Of a stretch of 64,000 nt of DNA, positions 4,895-59,500 are shown one piece after another (the first letter of the stretch is position 1; the number at the start of each line of letters is the position of its first letter). Below the pieces are notes generated by a model. The model was given only the letters and a program-made list of their open reading frames with translations, did not search any database and was not told the origin of the DNA. Source of the DNA: Candidatus Omnitrophota bacterium (lineage in GTDB: Bacteria; Omnitrophota; Gorgyraeia; Zapsychrales; JAKLDJ01); the NCBI GenBank assembly GCA_022703585.1, contig JAKLDJ010000003.1, forward strand, positions 206,250-270,249, written 5' to 3'. Both the position numbers and the translations under genes were made by a program.

Positions 4895-6193
4895 GTGTCT
4901 AAAGAAATACTGGTCAGTATTAAACAGGGCGAACGACGGGTCACGATGGTTGAGAACGGCAAACTCGAAGATTTTCATATCGAGGTGGACCGGCAGAATA
5001 CGATCCTGGGGAATGTTTACAAAGGGCGTGTCGAATCGATCCTGCCGTCAATTAACGGGGCTTTTGTTAATATCGGAGAAGAGAGAAACGGATTTTTATA
5101 TCTGACGGATGCTATTAATCCTCTCTTGGAGGAAGAAATTGCCGGTCCCCGCAAATTGATCGACAAGATCCTTCGTCGCAAACAAAAGCCCAAAGAGCAT
5201 AGAGATTCCAAGCCTAAACCTTTAGCCAAAGGCGATGAAGTTTTAGTCCAGGTCGTCAAAGAGCCTTTTGGCACCAAGGGGGCGAGGTTGACGACTCACG
5301 TGAGCCTGGCCGGCCGGTTTGTTGTTTTTATGCCTTACGATAAGCATTTGGGGGTTTCAAAAAGAATTGATGAGTCAGGAGAGCGCCAGCGGTTACGGGA
5401 AGTCTTAAGGGAGCTAAAATTCGGGCAGACCGGCGGATTTATTGTGCGGACTGCTTCTTTGCAGAAAGGTAAAAAAGAGTTAATACGCGATGCAAAGTTT
5501 CTGTTCAACATCTGGCAAAGGGTAAGAAAAACGGCCGATGAAAAACAAGCCCCGGCGCTCATTTATAAAGAATATGATTTGATGTGGCGGATTGTCCGTG
5601 ATTTCTTGACTGAAGACGTTGATAAATTGATTATTGACTCGCAGGAAGAATATCACCGGCTTTGCCGCTTTGTCTACACCCTAATCGGCCGGGAAATGGT
5701 TGCTAAAATCCAGCTTTATAAAGGCAATGTCCCGCTTTTTGATTCACATAACGTCGCTCATGAAATGCGCAAGATTTACGATAAGCGTGTTTTCTTAAAG
5801 TCCGGGGCCTATGTTGTTATTGAGCCTACGGAAGGCTTGATTGTTGTGGATGTCAACAGCGGAAAATTTAAGGCCAATGCCCCGCCTGAAGAAGCGGCAT
5901 TTTTGGTTAATATGGAGGCGGCGCCCGAAATTGCGCGGCAGTTGCGTTTACGGGATTTAGGTGGTATTATTGTCATTGATTTTATCGACATGGGCAAAGA
6001 GTCTCACCGTAGGCGGGTTCTGGAGTGCTTAGAGGCTGCCCTGTCAAAAGACCGTTCTAAAACCGAAGTTTCCAGGATTTCGGCGTTAGGCTTAGTGGAA
6101 ATGACCCGTGCCAGGACAGGAAAGACAATCGAATCAATTTCATTTCATGATTGTCCTTATTGTGACGGCAGGGGCCGCGTAAAAATCGACTAA
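4895..6193 (+). CDS. rng: ribonuclease G/E family (Rne/Rng) endoribonuclease
   Basis: GTG start. N-terminal S1 domain, DNase-I-like catalytic core (VVDVNSGKF), and a C-terminal Zn-link (CPYCDGRG). Confidence 0.85.
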   Translation: MSKEILVSIKQGERRVTMVENGKLEDFHIEVDRQNTILGNVYKGRVESILPSINGAFVNIGEERNGFLYLTDAINPLLEEEIAGPRKLIDKILRRKQKPKEHRDSKPKPLAKGDEVLVQVVKEPFGTKGARLTTHVSLAGRFVVFMPYDKHLGVSKRIDESGERQRLREVLRELKFGQTGGFIVRTASLQKGKKELIRDAKFLFNIWQRVRKTADEKQAPALIYKEYDLMWRIVRDFLTEDVDKLIIDSQEEYHRLCRFVYTLIGREMVAKIQLYKGNVPLFDSHNVAHEMRKIYDKRVFLKSGAYVVIEPTEGLIVVDVNSGKFKANAPPEEAAFLVNMEAAPEIARQLRLRDLGGIIVIDFIDMGKESHRRRVLECLEAALSKDRSKTEVSRISALGLVEMTRARTGKTIESISFHDCPYCDGRGRVKID

Positions 6194-6239
6194 TCTTTAA
6201 ATAGATAAATTTAGAGATTCAACAACAGGAGGAAGCAGG

Positions 6240-6551
6240 ATGTACGCTATTGTTCAGATAGGATCAGCGCAATACAAAGTGTCGCAAGGGGATACCATCG
6301 AGACTCATCTTCTTGAAAGCAAAGAAGGAGCGGATATCACGTTTGATCAGGTCATACTCCTTTGTGATAATTCAACCGTTAAAATCGGCCAGCCTTTCTT
6401 AAAAGAGGTCAAGGTGCTGGCCAAGGTTGTCCGTCATAATCTTGCAGCCAAAGTACTTTCCTATAAATACCGCCCGAAGAAGGATTCTGCCTGGAAAAAA
6501 GGGCACCGCCAAAAGCTGACGACTCTAACCATCACTAAAATCGCAGCGTAA
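6240..6551 (+). CDS. rplU: 50S ribosomal protein L21
   Basis: MYAIVQIGSAQYKVSQGDTI matches the L21 N-terminus. 103 aa. Confidence 0.95.
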   Translation: MYAIVQIGSAQYKVSQGDTIETHLLESKEGADITFDQVILLCDNSTVKIGQPFLKEVKVLAKVVRHNLAAKVLSYKYRPKKDSAWKKGHRQKLTTLTITKIAA

Positions 6552-6567
6552 TCTTTAAGGCAGCAAG

Positions 6568-7557
6568 ATGATTTTTGTTGATGAGGCAAGGATTTATTTA
6601 AAGGCCGGTGATGGTGGCAAGGGTTGCGAGAGCCACTATTCGGATATGCGCACGCGTTACCCCAGGCCCGACGGCGGGGACGGGGGCAAGGGCGGGGATA
6701 TTGTATTTATTGCCGACAAGAATATTCAGACGCTTTTAGATTTTAAATTTAAACAGCATTACAAAGGCGAGAAAGGCCATATCGGCAGCAGTAAGGGCAG
6801 CCAGGGGAGAAGAGGGACGGATTGTGTGTTAAAGGTTCCCGTGGGCACCTTGATTCGGGATGATGCCAACGGCCTTTTGATAAAAGATTTGGTGTCTCAT
6901 GGCCAGCAGGTTATCGCTGTGCGGGGTGGTAGGGGCGGCCGGGGCAATAACCATAACCGGGTACCGGCACCGGCCGAAGAAGGCGAATCCAGAGTCGTAC
7001 GCCTTGAATTGAAATTGATTGCTGATGTAGGGATTGTCGGTTTTCCGAATGTCGGAAAATCGACGTTTATTTCGAATGTTTCGCGGGTAAAATCCAAGAT
7101 TGCCAACTATCCGTTTACTACCCGGCAGCCGATTCTGGGAATTGTTCAGGGTGAGGATTTTGATTTTGCGATAGCGGATTTGCCCGGCTTGATCGAGGGG
7201 GCGCATAAAGGCCGCGGCCTTGGAGATCGTTTTTTAAAACATACCGAACGCACCCGCATCCTTTTGCACATGATCGATATGTCCGGCAGTGAAGGCCGCG
7301 ACCCGCTGGATGATTACGAGAAAATCAATAACGAGTTGGCGCAGTACAGCGACACGCTGTTGTTTAAGAATAGGATCATTGCCGCCAACAAGATGGATTT
7401 GCCCGAGGCTAAAGAGAATTTAAAAAGATTTAAAAAGAAATATAAGGGAAAAATCTATCCGATCTCGGCTCTAAACAAAGAGGGGATAGAAAAACTCATT
7501 GATGCGATAAGGGTTATTTTATGTCGAGAAAATTCAAAAAAACCATCAGACGCGTAG
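6568..7557 (+). CDS. obg: GTPase Obg/CgtA
   Basis: Obg-fold glycine-rich N-domain (GGDGGKGGD, GGRGGRGN) plus a G-domain (GFPNVGKST). Confidence 0.95.
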   Translation: MIFVDEARIYLKAGDGGKGCESHYSDMRTRYPRPDGGDGGKGGDIVFIADKNIQTLLDFKFKQHYKGEKGHIGSSKGSQGRRGTDCVLKVPVGTLIRDDANGLLIKDLVSHGQQVIAVRGGRGGRGNNHNRVPAPAEEGESRVVRLELKLIADVGIVGFPNVGKSTFISNVSRVKSKIANYPFTTRQPILGIVQGEDFDFAIADLPGLIEGAHKGRGLGDRFLKHTERTRILLHMIDMSGSEGRDPLDDYEKINNELAQYSDTLLFKNRIIAANKMDLPEAKENLKRFKKKYKGKIYPISALNKEGIEKLIDAIRVILCRENSKKPSDA

Positions 7558-54381: not shown

Positions 54382-54388
54382 GTTTTTT

Positions 54389-54468
54389 AGCTCTGAGCTC
54401 TGAGCCAGGAGCTATGTGCTGTGAGCTCACAGCTGCTCAAAGCTCCCAGCTCCAAGCTCAAAGCTCAA
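54389..54468. repeat. array of at least 8 AGCTC/GAGCT pentamer words
   Basis: tAGCTCtgAGCTCtgagccaggAGCTatgtgctgtgAGCTCacAGCTgctcaaAGCTCccAGCTCcaAGCTCaaAGCTCaaaac. Confidence 0.7.
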
Positions 54469-54473
54469 AACAT

Positions 54474-54502
54474 TTGACATCTTGTACGAATTTATGTAAT
54501 AT
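54474..54502 (+). promoter_or_regulatory. sigma70-type promoter (TTGACA-17nt-TAATAT)
   Basis: Near-consensus hexamers about 110 nt upstream of the ORF6N fragment. Confidence 0.55.
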
Positions 54503-54615
54503 CGCCCCTATGACGTGCCATAATTGACATTTCCACCCCCACCTTTCAACAATCAATCACATCCTAACCTTTCAGCCCACTTTCCAACTTAATATTTTTA
54601 AGGAAAGGAAATTTT

Positions 54616-54945
54616 ATGAAAAAGGGCGACTTGGAAGTCGTCGAGCAAAAGATATTTTTGCTGCGAGGTCAGAAAGTCATGATTGACCGGCATTTGGCCG
54701 AACTTTACGGTGTTAGGACAAAAGTTCTTGTTCAGGCCGTCAAGCGCAACAAGAGAAGGTTTCCTAAGGATTTTATGTTCCAACTGACGGGTCAGGAATT
54801 TAAGAGTTTGAGGTCACAATTTGTGACCTCAAACCGCGGTGGCAGCCGGTACCGGCCGTATGCCTTTACGGAACAGGGTGTCGCCATGCTCTCAACTGTC
54901 TTACTGACTTTTTCCTTTCGAATATTCAATTTGGAAGGTATCTAA
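54616..54945 (+). pseudogene. ORF6N-domain protein, N-terminal fragment (gene interrupted)
   Basis: [76 protein letters not shown] matches the ORF6N family. Family homology is lost after ...AMLSTVL and the frame hits a stop. Confidence 0.7.
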
Positions 54946-54973
54946 GGAAGAATTCTCGTCGAAAGGAAAAAGT
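54907..54973. mobile_element. 67-bp palindromic insertion with perfect 15-bp terminal inverted repeats (ACTTTTTCCTTTCGA ... TCGAAAGGAAAAAGT), MITE-like
   Basis: Seen directly. It lies inside the roughly 114-bp non-homologous segment that splits the ORF6N gene and introduces stop codons. Confidence 0.6.
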
Positions 54974-55002
54974 AGTACTGCCTTCCTCTATGAAAATTAT
55001 TA

Positions 55003-55263
55003 AGGAAAAGGCCAGTAAATAGCGAGCGTGCCATTGGCGTGAATATTGTTATTATGCGCGCTTTTGTCAAGCTGCGCGAGATATTCTCGGCGCATAAAGA
55101 GCTCGCCCAGAAACTGGCTGAACTTGAGCGAAAGGTTGAAAGTCACGACGCCCATATCCAGGGGATCTTTGAAGTTATCCGTAAACTGATGGCAGTGCCT
55201 GCCGAGAAACCAAAAAGGACAATCGGGTTTCATCCGTCTCCTGCTGACCGGTCAGGAATTTGA
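55003..55263 (+). pseudogene. ORF6N-domain protein, C-terminal fragment
   Basis: (RP)VNSERAIGVNIVIMRAFVKLREIFSAHKELAQKLAELERKVESHD...PKRTIGFHP is the canonical ORF6N C-terminal half. It is in the same frame as the N-fragment. Confidence 0.7.
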
Positions 55264-55295
55264 GGGTTTGAGGTCACAAATTGTGACCCCAAGCC
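55243..55295 (+). repeat. about 52-bp partial duplicate of the ORF6N internal segment (54782-54834), a remnant of a second ORF6N copy
   Basis: ctgaccggtcaggaatttgagggtttgaggtcacaaattgtgaccccaagcc versus ctgacgggtcaggaatttaagagtttgaggtcacaatttgtgacctcaaacc. Confidence 0.65.
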
Positions 55296-55360
55296 ACCTT
55301 CCAGAAATTAATTGACTAAAATCCCCCAGAGGCGTAGCCTAAGGGCTAGTATCCATAATA

Positions 55361-55470
55361 AGGGACGCTCTTTTGGCTCAATAGAAGTCTGTCCCTTTCC
55401 CAGGAAAAAGGGACACACTTCCATAGCACGGAAAGAGCGTCCCTGATACAGACGTGTCCCGGGAAATCAA
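55361..55470 (+). promoter_or_regulatory. GGGAC/GTCCC-rich nested inverted-repeat element in the leader of the PEP-CTERM gene
   Basis: 13-bp perfect inverted repeat AGGGACGCTCTTT (55361-73) / AAAGAGCGTCCCT (55432-44) enclosing hairpin GTCCCTTT...AAAGGGAC (55391-55414). Two more GTGTCCC words downstream. Confidence 0.5.
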
Positions 55471-55537
55471 GGTGTCCCCGAAATTCTGGTTAGGCTCAAG
55501 GGTCCAGAAATTAGCTATCGAAAGAAAGGATCGAGAC

Positions 55538-56284
55538 ATGAAGAAGATGTTTATTGCGCTTGGTTTCTTAGTTGTAGTTAATTTCGTGATAGCTTCAAAA
55601 GCTAATGCGGCCTTAATCGGCTATTGGAATTTTAATGAAGGTTTAGGGGATGTTGCTAATGACAGCTCTGGTTTTGGAAATGACGCAACTGGATTAAATT
55701 CAAGCTGGATAGCTGGTAAGCATGGTTACGGTACGAATAGCAGTAGTATTATAGTTCAACCGGATGCGTCACTTCTCCCTTCTTCAAGCCTCACTATTTC
55801 GGCCTGGGCTAGAATTGATGAATTTAATGGCCTTCAGCGTAGAATTGCGGAAATGGAATATCGCTACGGGCTTCTTTTTAATCCGCCGAATATTGATTCT
55901 CAGACGGCATTCTATCTGAATTTAAATTCGGATAATTACTCTTTCGAATATCAGGATATTCCGTTAGGGGAATGGTTTCATACGGCAGTGAGTTGGGACG
56001 GAAATATCGCACAGTATTATATCAACGGAATTCCCGTAACTCCTGTTGTTGCCGATGCAGTCATCAATCAAAATGGTGGCATCCCGCTTTTCATGGGGGC
56101 AGAGGGTTATTCTCTGGACGAAGTTCGGATTTATAATAATGCTTTGAGCCGGGAAGAAATTCTTAGAGATATGAATTTCGACAGCACTGTCATTCCAGAG
56201 CCCACAACCCTTTTTCTCTTGGGCAGCGGTATTTTAGGAACGCTTTTTAGCAGAAGAAAACTTTTCAAAGCAAGAAGGTGCTAG
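55538..56284 (+). CDS. PEP-CTERM sorting-domain protein with LamG/concanavalin-A-like lectin domain
   Basis: Signal peptide (MKKMFIALGFLVVVNFVIASKANA). LamG-type start LIGYWNFNEGLGDVANDSSGFGNDATGL. C-terminal VIPEPTTLFLLGSGILGTLFSRRK, i.e. PEP motif, TM and basic cluster. The ORF-track start at 55454 is rejected in favour of the MKKM start. Confidence 0.8.
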   Translation: MKKMFIALGFLVVVNFVIASKANAALIGYWNFNEGLGDVANDSSGFGNDATGLNSSWIAGKHGYGTNSSSIIVQPDASLLPSSSLTISAWARIDEFNGLQRRIAEMEYRYGLLFNPPNIDSQTAFYLNLNSDNYSFEYQDIPLGEWFHTAVSWDGNIAQYYINGIPVTPVVADAVINQNGGIPLFMGAEGYSLDEVRIYNNALSREEILRDMNFDSTVIPEPTTLFLLGSGILGTLFSRRKLFKARRC

Positions 56285-56297
56285 GCGCTCTTAAAAG

Positions 56298-56358
56298 GGA
56301 CAGGTCAGTTGTCCCGCCACCCCCGTCGCATGGAAGCGCAACGGGGATTAGCGGCGGG
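56298..56358 (+). terminator. nested GC-rich hairpins downstream of the PEP-CTERM gene (possible terminator or structured RNA)
   Basis: GGGACA-ggtcagt-TGTCCC, then CCCCGTCGC-atggaa-GCGCAACGGGG, enclosed by TCCCGCC...GGCGGGA. There is no clear U-tract. Confidence 0.35.
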
Positions 56359-56449
56359 ATTAACTCGGCGGCCTCGTTTAAGGATATTTAGAAACGGTCC
56401 TAGAATTCTTATGGGTACTTGTTTTTAGGGTTTAAATGAGGAGGAAACA

Positions 56450-56803
56450 ATGAAGAGAGTTAGAATTAAATGCTCACCTTTTACATCGAATTTAGAAGTG
56501 GATGATGATCTTGTATTAAAGTTACATGTGCCATATTCTGATAAGGAGGTAACGATACAAATCAACCCCAATATTCAAGACTACAAGGAGAAGAATGATA
56601 ATCCGGGGGCGAAGATTCGCCAAACGATTGTAACGACTCCAACCGATGAAACCCGAACGCTGAAATTTGACTTTAATAACATGAGAGCACAAAAAATTGT
56701 TGTTGGTGAAACGGCATATAAAATTGAATTGCTTGAAATCGGCAAAGAAGAGGCTGAAGGGCAAAGATTTCCATACTTCGATTTTTCTGTTAGTCGGGAA
56801 TAG
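56450..56803 (+). CDS. hypothetical protein (117 aa, soluble, no recognisable domain), AT-rich
   Basis: Good RBS (GAGGAGG). Open frame with no family match I can recognise. Confidence 0.55.
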   Translation: MKRVRIKCSPFTSNLEVDDDLVLKLHVPYSDKEVTIQINPNIQDYKEKNDNPGAKIRQTIVTTPTDETRTLKFDFNNMRAQKIVVGETAYKIELLEIGKEEAEGQRFPYFDFSVSRE

Positions 56804-56890
56804 AATCTTGAAATCAGGCGGTCCTAAAATTACGGGGACAGCTCTGGTATAACCGCTTGATGTCGTAAGGGATATCCAGAAACGGTCTAA

Positions 56891-57622
56891 ATGGTTAATA
56901 TTGGTTTTCTTCTTAATCTAATTAGTAGATTTATAAATATTGATAGCTTTCAAATCAGCTTATATTTCTTATCAGCACTCGGCCAGTCAATGGCAGCGCT
57001 ACTCGCCATAGGTGGAATTTTTGCAATTTATCAATTCCAAAGAATTGAAAATCGCATCGAACACACATGTAATGCGTTTAAGAACTACATTCGGGTAGCT
57101 GATCCCGATGAGCCAGGCAAATGGTTGAATAAAGATGTTATATCCCATCTATTACGTCGTTTTAAAGAGAAGAAAGATGGAGATTCTAACGATCTGCAAG
57201 ATGCGTTTATCGATTATTTTAATGAGCTAGAAGCCCTTGAGGACTTTCGTATAAAGTTGAGACAAGAACTACTGTCCCCAACCATATTAATTACTATAGT
57301 ATTTGGATTAGCATTATTCGCATTGATTGAAATGCCTCCCAATGGCTATGATATATTTACTTTATTTGGAATATTCTTACTTGGGGCTGTAGCAGTTCGC
57401 CGCTTAATTAGTTATATCTTTATGGCTCTTGGTGACCCCGATTCTAAGATTTTTAATAATCCTATCACTTCAGGGGATGAAGAGCTGAGTGAGCTCCGCA
57501 AGGTATATCTAAGAGAACGCGGACGGGAGATGCTTAAGAAATATGACATTTTACGAGCGAAATTGAAAATAAATTTGAAGAAACTTACCACCAAGATAGA
57601 GAAAGAAGAGAACGGTTCCTAA
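56891..57622 (+). CDS. hypothetical membrane protein (243 aa, about 3 TM helices, then a charged coiled-coil C-terminus), AT-rich
   Basis: TM segments at about residues 20-47, 129-147 and 155-176. Lys/Glu-rich helical C-terminus. No known family. Confidence 0.55.
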   Translation: MVNIGFLLNLISRFINIDSFQISLYFLSALGQSMAALLAIGGIFAIYQFQRIENRIEHTCNAFKNYIRVADPDEPGKWLNKDVISHLLRRFKEKKDGDSNDLQDAFIDYFNELEALEDFRIKLRQELLSPTILITIVFGLALFALIEMPPNGYDIFTLFGIFLLGAVAVRRLISYIFMALGDPDSKIFNNPITSGDEELSELRKVYLRERGREMLKKYDILRAKLKINLKKLTTKIEKEENGS

Positions 57623-57726
57623 AAAAGGGATAGCGTGATTATAGGAAAAACGGGACAATGCCCTTTTAGGCCGAATCAAGTAATGTATCGCAGGAATTAG
57701 AATGTTCTATTAACCTAAGCAAACTA

Positions 57727-59163
57727 ATGAAAAATACAAAACCAAAGGTATTTATTTCTTATAGTTGGAGTTCTCCGGGACATCAAATGCGTGTAAAGCA
57801 ATGGGCTGAGCAACTCATTGCTGATGGGATAGATGTTGTTCTGGATATTTATGATCTCAAGGAGGGACATGATAAGTTCGCGTTTATGGAAAGAATGGTC
57901 ACAGATAAAGATGTAACCCATGTCCTTGTAATTTGTGACAAAGTGTATGCAGAAAAATCTGATGCAAGAAAAGCTGGCGTTGGAACAGAGTCACAAATTA
58001 TTTCTAAAAAAGTTTATGAAAGAGTTGATCAATCGAAATTTATACCAATTGCTTGTGAATTTGCAGAGGATGGCAATCCTTATTTGCCAGTTTTCCTGAA
58101 ATCTAGAATTTGGATAGATTTTTCTTCCTCTCAGGCAGTAAGCGACAATTGGGAGAAGCTTGTTCGGCTAATCTTTGGTAAGCCGTTACATGAGAAGCCA
58201 AAACTTGGAAAGCCGCCCGTCTACATAACAAGCGATATAGCGGTTCCATCAAGTCCAGCAACAATTAAATTTAATACTTTTCGCCAGGCACTACTTCAGG
58301 GCAAAATAGGTCTTTCACTGTACAGAAATGATTTCTTATCTGCATGTATTGAGTATATCGATTCGCTTCGAACTAGGGAGAGACCTGATGTCGATTCTCT
58401 AGGAAAAAAGGTTCTTGAGGATTGCACGAAACTAAAACAAGCGAGAAATCAGATTGTTGATTGGATTTTGATAGAAAGTGGAATATCGCCAACCGAAGAA
58501 TTTTCAGAAGCACTCCTAGCATTTCTAGAAGAATTGCGTGAACTAAAATCCAGGCCAGCAGAACTTAACTCATGGAATGATGCTTGGTTTGAAGCACACG
58601 AATTATTTGTTTATGAAACCTTTCTTTATATTATCGCCGCTCTTTTGAAGTCTGGTGCATATAAAATATTACACGAGGTTTTTACTTCACATTATCTTTG
58701 CCTAATACACGGAGAACAGAAATTTGATACCTTTGATTGTTTCTATGGCTACTCTAAAACTCTTCAATCGGAATTGGCTCCAGAGGGCAAGAGGCTTTAT
58801 AGTCCTGCTGCTGAACTTATAAAAAGACAAGCAGATCGCTTGGATGTTCCATTTGAGTCTGTAATAGAAGCGGAATTGCTTGTGTTGTTAATGGCGTTTC
58901 TGATTCCCAATGTTAGATGGTATCCACAGACATTGCATTATTCTTCTTATGGCAAGGAATTCCTCTTTTTTATAAGAGCAACGCGACATAAGAATTTCTT
59001 AAAACTGGCTCAAATAACAGGGATTAATGATGTTAATCAGCTACGTGAGGCAGTAAAAGAAGGACATAAAAGACTTGGAGTGGACCAGTGGCACGATTTT
59101 CATCTTCAGGACCGCTCATTTTGGTCATCTATGAATATGGATAATTTAGATACGTTGAAATGA
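57727..59163 (+). CDS. SEFIR/TIR-like N-terminal domain protein with about 320-aa alpha-helical C-terminal domain of unknown function
   Basis: N-terminus KVFISYSWSSPGHQMRVKQWAEQLIADGIDVVLDIYDLKEGHD...HVLVICDKVYAEKSDARKAGVGTESQI...KFIPIACEF follows the bacterial SEFIR/TIR_2 pattern (kVFISYShd...Wv..la..L...G..V.lD..dl..G). The C-terminal domain is unassignable. Confidence 0.65.
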   Translation: MKNTKPKVFISYSWSSPGHQMRVKQWAEQLIADGIDVVLDIYDLKEGHDKFAFMERMVTDKDVTHVLVICDKVYAEKSDARKAGVGTESQIISKKVYERVDQSKFIPIACEFAEDGNPYLPVFLKSRIWIDFSSSQAVSDNWEKLVRLIFGKPLHEKPKLGKPPVYITSDIAVPSSPATIKFNTFRQALLQGKIGLSLYRNDFLSACIEYIDSLRTRERPDVDSLGKKVLEDCTKLKQARNQIVDWILIESGISPTEEFSEALLAFLEELRELKSRPAELNSWNDAWFEAHELFVYETFLYIIAALLKSGAYKILHEVFTSHYLCLIHGEQKFDTFDCFYGYSKTLQSELAPEGKRLYSPAAELIKRQADRLDVPFESVIEAELLVLLMAFLIPNVRWYPQTLHYSSYGKEFLFFIRATRHKNFLKLAQITGINDVNQLREAVKEGHKRLGVDQWHDFHLQDRSFWSSMNMDNLDTLK

Positions 59164-59264
59164 GAAAAACGTGCCAATCACAAAATAGTGACAGGTAGAC
59201 TGAGACAATATAACTTATGACCACCTGTGTGTTGGTTGAAAATAAAGTCTATTTGCGCAGGTTA

Positions 59265-59470
59265 AGAGCAATAACCAATAACCAAGAAACAAGCCCAGAT
59301 TGCACGCTGTAAGTTAAGATACAATAACCAAGAAACAAGATACAAACAAATTTCAATGCCCAATTACCAAACACCAACCCTGTTTCTGTTTGATTATTGA
59401 GGCGTTTGTTATTTGGGCTTTGTTTGGTTATTGTCTCTTGGTGTTTGGTTATTGTCTGTGCTGTTTGTTG
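59265..59470. repeat. about 200-bp mirrored palindrome built from AATAACCAAGAAACAAG words (left arm) and their complements (right arm)
   Basis: Left: caataaccaataaccaagaaacaag, acaataaccaagaaacaag, aagccca. Right: tgggctt, tgtttctgtttg, tttggttattgtct x2. Confidence 0.7.
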
Positions 59471-59500
59471 AGTAAATACTAAATTCTAAAGGCACAAGCC

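Follow-up and report, generated by a model that had tools for sequence, protein, structure and literature searches.

Judged by its sequence, the gene at positions 57727..59163 (+ strand) of the window, i.e. of the 64,000-nucleotide stretch of Candidatus Omnitrophota DNA analyzed here, is an ordinary member of the known bSEFIR anti-phage family and not a new fusion. Its product, 478 aa followed by a stop codon, is a predicted single-protein anti-phage defence system. The bSEFIR family was described in 2022 (Millman et al. 2022) and is covered by DefenseFinder and PADLOC under the system name ‘SEFIR’. In this single-protein system, the N-terminal SEFIR domain depletes NAD+, which is converted to ADPR and nicotinamide. 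In B. subtilis, the Bacillus bSEFIR confers protection against phi29 that is lost with the D40A mutation, and the phage NARP1 pathway, which rebuilds NAD+, counters bSEFIR.

The initial annotation had described the protein as a SEFIR/TIR-like domain fused to an unassigned partner that could be a new sensor. The pairing is not novel, since the same two-domain protein defines bSEFIR and has been known since 2022. The PADLOC bSEFIR profile PDLC03957 matches the whole protein at E = 5.4e-98 (residues 1-476). When the protein is divided into halves, the N-terminal half matches at E = 2.4e-77 and the C-terminal half at E = 1.4e-13, the latter over profile positions 191-384. Since the C-terminal half matches the bSEFIR profile on its own, the domain previously regarded as unassigned belongs to the definition of the family. 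In addition, the PHROG family phrog_11745 matches the protein over its full length (3e-144).

A closer comparison was made with the verified bSEFIR of Bacillus sp. NIO-1130, whose reference sequence was taken from the supplement of the discovery preprint and comprises the first ~399 of 468 residues. BLASTP aligns the two proteins colinearly over 410 aa with 32% identity (E = 7e-62), and hhalign matches a profile of 32 diverse C-terminal domains to the NIO-1130 C-terminal domain at 98.75% (E = 1.5e-16). The two proteins thus share the two-domain architecture, a similar length (478 vs. 468 aa), homologous C-terminal domains and encoding by a single gene, and residues D40 and E88 bear the same numbers in both. 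The window protein differs in being a distant orthologue, known from sequence alone, of an uncultured Omnitrophota bacterium. According to the rule of the discoverers, a protein is assigned to bSEFIR if its N-terminal part matches SEFIR more strongly than TIR. The SEFIR match of the window protein is N-terminal and outscores TIR_2 (55.4 vs. 47.6 bits, using hmmscan and not HHsearch), so that the protein is a bSEFIR by this rule as well.

The ATG-to-stop frame spans exactly the interval given above. It should be noted that public gene calls differ on the start codon, namely: a 478-aa form starting at 57727 (P0365) and a 458-aa form starting 20 codons downstream at 57787 (P0001). The shorter call drops the first β-strand, PKVFISYSW, and with it the Pfam SEFIR annotation, so that only TIR_2 stays. 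No obvious Shine-Dalgarno sequence precedes either ATG. The start at 57727 is favoured by the homologues of ~477 aa, which keep the PKVFISYSW N-terminus, and by an NCBI record identical to the 478-aa form (‘TIR domain-containing protein [Candidatus Omnitrophota bacterium]’). The full-length AlphaFold model has a pLDDT of 91.7.

The SEFIR domain and its conserved residues

The N-terminal SEFIR domain comprises residues 6-159 (57742..58203, + strand) and is the predicted NAD+ glycohydrolase effector of the protein. SEFIR and TIR domains together make up the STIR clan, and matches to both are found here: Pfam SEFIR matches residues 6-124 at E = 1.1e-14 (55.4 bits; cut-off 23), and TIR_2 matches residues 8-145 at E = 2.8e-12, above its curated cut-off. 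The crystallised SEFIR domain of B. cereus (PDB 5y8e) matches residues 6-159 at E = 1e-30 using phmmer and at E = 3e-53 using a profile. The best structures returned by Foldseek are 5y8e and 5y8f (TM 0.84-0.89), followed by the Act1 SEFIR domain and the TIR domains of SPARTA. The initial annotation, which had staked its reading of a SEFIR/TIR-like N-terminal domain on a profile-level match, thus stands on this point. The two motifs that it had pointed out are also in place, with the FISYS strand at residues 9-13 and the DxxD helix at D40-x-x-D43 (DIYD), which is modelled as a short helix.

Conservation was assessed using an alignment of 62 diverse homologues, down to ~31% identity. The residues that are invariant in this alignment are S11, Y12, D40, Y74, G84, E88, P121, L145, R147, P158, P164 and W398. 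D40 (codon 57844..57846, + strand) is a predicted SEFIR-SEFIR interface residue; unlike D40, D43 is not invariant. E88 (codon 57988..57990, + strand) lies in a G-V-G-T-E-S loop and is a candidate catalytic glutamate, also found in 5y8e and, as residue 88, in the verified Bacillus bSEFIR. We infer that E88 is the counterpart of the TIR catalytic Glu; the alignments to the TIR NADases AbTIR and BtTir span the first ~40 residues and end at profile position 51, before E88, and E88 belongs to residues 83-88, the one loop that is modelled with low confidence.

The SEFIR domain is joined to the C-terminal domain by a conserved linker rich in Pro, Lys and Gly (residues ~150-175; 58174..58251, + strand). 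Across the 62 sequences, P158 and P164 of the linker are accompanied by the nearly invariant P153, K157 and G161, and the pLDDT of the linker is lower in the model (69-81).

Among the structurally characterized relatives, the SEFIR domain of B. cereus F65185 (BcSEFIR; 5y8e/5y8f) is ~41-42% identical to that of the window protein and shares with it the FISYSW strand, the D40-equivalent and the GVGTE loop. However, the close relatives retrieved with 5y8e (P0330-P0363) are all short, with 89-259 aa. Four of them (214-259 aa) were scanned and show no Pfam match to any large C-terminal domain. One 5y8e relative has HEAT repeats. It thus seems that bacteria use SEFIR domains in two or more architectures.

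The TIR NADases, i.e. SPARTA TIR-APAZ, AbTir/BtTir and ThsB, have in common with the window protein the STIR-clan fold and the expected conversion of NAD+ to ADPR and nicotinamide, with a Foldseek probability of 1.0 for both BtTir and the TIR domains of SPARTA. The window protein differs from them in belonging to the SEFIR subfamily and in having no Argonaute, ThsA or other partner.

The C-terminal all-alpha domain

Residues 165-478 (58219..59160, + strand) make up the C-terminal all-alpha domain, a predicted sensor or regulatory module. The helical and aromatic-rich character that had been noticed in the last ~320 aa is evident: the AlphaFold model, which is confident in this part (pLDDT 90-92), contains 61% helix and 2% strand with one small hairpin, and Trp, Phe and Tyr account for 12.2% of the residues vs. 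7.2% in the other long ORFs of the window. The AF2 model of the domain alone has a pLDDT of 90.4 and a pTM of 0.91. As had also been stated in the initial annotation, the domain carries no recognised motif; it matches no Pfam or NCBIfam family, and its fold has no Foldseek match in the PDB or in BFVD, a collection of viral structures. A Pfam PqqD match (E = 0.086) was dismissed as noise. A missing catalytic Glu together with a C-terminal domain related to a metabolic enzyme, the combination that the initial annotation held to be incompatible with its reading, is not what we found, since an invariant Glu, the candidate E88, is present.

To place this domain, residues 160-478 were compared with 1.84 billion cluster representatives using HMMER, yielding 628 proteins at E ≤ 1e-3. 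Nearly all of the full-length matches have 470-490 aa and are fused to SEFIR, with the domain starting at about residue 160. Even the distant homologues, which are 23-28% identical in this domain, bear SEFIR and match the bSEFIR model at E values of 1e-87 to 1e-109. The search with the C-terminal domain alone, which had been proposed as a check on the new fusion, thus returned almost exclusively the known pairing.

Among the 62 aligned sequences, mean pairwise identity is 31% for the C-terminal domain vs. 54% for the SEFIR domain, which indicates that the former evolves faster. A fast-diverging partner joined to a conserved enzyme is the usual pattern for a fused sensor. It is reasonable to infer that the C-terminal domain may act as a phage sensor, a predicted role that applies to the whole family and is not specific to this locus. 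In the literature that was searched, no paper was found on the role of the bSEFIR C-terminal domain, on its trigger or on a full-length structure.

In one protein, P0256/P0364, a ParA/MinD-like ATPase with a KGGVGR motif takes the place of SEFIR ahead of the bSEFIR C-terminal domain. P0364 (648 aa; L084 7600-9947, also L085) matches PDC-M28B at 5e-28 and positions 209-364 of the bSEFIR profile at 3e-15. Its gene is preceded by an overlapping gene for a 134-aa protein, and this arrangement is conserved on both contigs. At the level of sequence, the architecture of P0364 suggests that the bSEFIR C-terminal domain is a reusable module. We put forward only tentatively, and as the less probable case, that the domain is an undescribed portable sensing fold that occurs in the SEFIR NADase as well as in at least one ATPase of PDC-M28, a candidate system.

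Two other proteins depart from the common architecture. P0240 (659 aa) has an N-terminal extension of ~150 aa ahead of its SEFIR domain, and P0023 (542 aa) has Pfam matches to HTH_3 and HTH_31 on top of the bSEFIR architecture. Each may be a true fusion or the product of merged gene calls.

Eukaryotic SEFIR domains (IL-17 receptors, Act1/TRAF3IP2) share the fold of the window domain, with Act1 in 9ot1 matching at a Foldseek E of 7e-4 and a profile E of 0.008, but they are non-enzymatic adaptors of receptor pathways and show no homology beyond the SEFIR domain. The resemblance of our model to the Act1 SEFIR domain agrees with a 2018 proposal for bacterial SEFIR, according to which the domain is only an interaction or oligomerisation module; in that case, the effector would be the C-terminal domain, or the protein would have a role outside immunity. 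It also agrees with this proposal that D40, which is important experimentally, was picked as an interaction residue, and that the C-terminal domain has no known fold while its polar or aromatic residues R240, E268, E297 and W398 are invariant or nearly so. However, later papers assign NAD+ cleavage to SEFIR, an activity that is countered by the NAD+-rebuilding phage pathway. Furthermore, a conserved G-V-G-x-E loop contains the invariant Glu, and of the two halves SEFIR varies less, as expected for an enzyme. We thus regard a purely adaptor-like SEFIR domain as improbable and retain the reading of an NAD+-depleting SEFIR domain.

Genomic setting of the gene and of its relatives

Among the species-representative genomes scanned, at least 552 carry a relative of bSEFIR; these come from many bacterial phyla as well as from Methanosarcinales. 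The clade of the window protein is itself very widespread, with members that are 64-78% identical across many phyla. Mobile elements are among the carriers: Klebsiella phage ST15-OXA48phi14.1 encodes a relative with 46% identity over 99% of the protein, and full-length relatives are also found in other temperate phages and on 16 plasmids at ≥80% coverage. In Escherichia phage 500465-1 (CP025900.1 / NC_049342.1; positions 5221-6644), the alignment of the relative is split into four pieces and overlaps with two annotated genes; this copy may be frameshifted or inactivated.

We examined 80 bSEFIR loci in other genomes, and none of the neighbour genes of the window recurs in them. The 368 neighbouring genes at these loci fall into 333 clusters. 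The absence of a conserved partner across the 80 other genomes agrees with bSEFIR being a single-gene system. The genes that adjoin bSEFIR elsewhere include those for Type I, III and IV restriction enzymes, Dsr2, PbeA, ThsB, PifA, a KAP NTPase, HEPN/Toprim proteins and phage portal and terminase proteins, with housekeeping genes mixed in.

These neighbourhoods bear on whether the SEFIR domain might be a signalling enzyme resembling ThsB, which would signal to a separate effector by means of a nucleotide second messenger instead of depleting NAD+ itself. The membership of SEFIR in the same clan as TIR domains, the TIR_2 match and the weak PADLOC matches of the window protein to TIR-containing Argonaute-associated proteins are in line with such an enzyme. 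Nonetheless, no effector gene is conserved beside bSEFIR in the 80 genomes, and neither the protein nor its neighbours in the window have a PADLOC match to ThsB or ThsA, which sets the protein apart from Thoeris, where ThsB is paired with ThsA. The system described in the literature is, moreover, a single protein that depletes NAD+. A messenger-producing SEFIR domain is, in our estimate, highly improbable, and direct NAD+ depletion by bSEFIR remains the preferred reading.

In the window, the bSEFIR gene lies in a strain-specific variable region, an insertion of ~5 kb at 54382..59500 that is absent from related genomes. The region is flanked by conserved housekeeping genes, with a gene for a 234-aa protein and a CBS gene upstream and Memo-DUF1844-aroQ-pepP-efp downstream. 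The distance from the 234-aa gene to Memo is 5.6 kb in the window vs. 0.25-1.2 kb in related metagenomic genomes, and none of 80 related loci contains ORF6N, LamG, the two genes of no assigned family described below or bSEFIR. In the relatives, either nothing or one unrelated gene (e.g. a 307-aa ORF at L164) separates the 234-aa gene from Memo. In the window, positions 54382-59500 hold the CBS gene, a disrupted ORF6N gene, a gene for a LamG/PEP-CTERM surface protein (55454-56284), the same two genes and bSEFIR. No nearby tRNA gene and no clear repeats were found at the borders of the island, and promoter and terminator scans were not informatively above the expectation from shuffled sequences. 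The only Rfam match between 54.3 and 59.7 kb, mir-515, is a chance match far below threshold.

The part of the region that contains bSEFIR is a low-GC block (56400..59500), with a GC content of 0.365-0.40 vs. 0.465 for the window in composition profiles and per-gene values, and it was probably acquired horizontally. In addition to bSEFIR, this block encodes a 117-aa protein (56450-56803) and, directly upstream of bSEFIR, a 243-aa protein (56891-57622), both on the + strand as is bSEFIR. Judged by eye, the 243-aa protein has about three putative membrane-spanning hydrophobic stretches and a Lys/Glu-rich tail, and a metagenome scan gave no relatives of it. Neither protein belongs to a PADLOC, Pfam, NCBIfam or PHROG family, the only match being a weak one to DUF4760 (E = 0.02). 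A role as conserved partners of bSEFIR was ruled out, as both are absent from 80/80 other bSEFIR loci; the two genes may simply be unrelated cargo, or they may form an unrecognised pair with a defence or accessory role.

In the window, bSEFIR is not flanked by any recognised defence system, the only candidate being the disrupted ORF6N/KilA-N anti-repressor-like gene (PADLOC PDC-S05; 54616-55263), which is split into two ORFs. The split is caused by a 114-nt in-frame insert (54904-55017) that carries three stop codons and is bounded by imperfect inverted repeats of 38 nt (TTACTGAC...GGCCAGTAA). It sits precisely at the junction of the conserved segments ‘...AMLSTVL’ and ‘NSERAIGVNIVIMRAF...’, is present as a single copy in the window, and interrupts the gene in the same way in an independent assembly (L001). 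The insert looks like a MITE-like insertion.

It is very unlikely that the bSEFIR gene is decaying or lies silent on the acquired segment, without function in its host, as could be supposed from the low-GC insertion with its disrupted ORF6N gene, the lack of a clear ribosome-binding site and the possibly broken copy in E. coli phage 500465-1, since the frame is intact over its full length, every invariant residue of the family is kept and identical copies of the protein are present on several independent assemblies.

Proposed mode of action and its implications

Taken together, we consider it probable that the gene is a stand-alone, abortive-infection type bSEFIR defence system that acts by NAD+ depletion and lies, in an Omnitrophota genome, on a segment acquired by horizontal transfer. 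Based on homology, the window protein most likely acts like the published bSEFIR. In an uninfected cell, the protein would be inactive. Upon infection, the C-terminal all-alpha domain, which evolves fast, would most likely recognise a phage-derived cue, and recognition would lead to association of SEFIR domains via the D40 surface, as the mutation in the Bacillus orthologue leads us to expect here. The assembled SEFIR domains would then hydrolyse NAD+ to ADP-ribose and nicotinamide, the reaction published for the family, with the invariant E88 probably being part of the site. The loss of NAD+ would halt phage replication, and a second gene would not be needed.

This scheme has a parallel in DSR1 and DSR2, which, according to the literature, likewise combine an N-terminal NAD+-depleting domain with a C-terminal phage-sensing domain and are countered by NARP1. 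However, these proteins carry SIR2 instead of SEFIR and are much larger.

PADLOC or DefenseFinder would label the gene as bSEFIR automatically, and its detection as such carries little weight as a discovery. What the locus adds is that the range of bSEFIR extends to Candidatus Omnitrophota, by way of a small horizontally acquired insertion. For studies of how bSEFIR senses phages, the analysis offers several pointers, namely: a C-terminal domain with no assigned fold or function, its fast divergence, and one alternative N-terminal partner. If the domain is indeed a portable sensing fold, a reading that concerns the whole bSEFIR family and not this locus in particular, identification of its ligand would uncover a new way of detecting phages.
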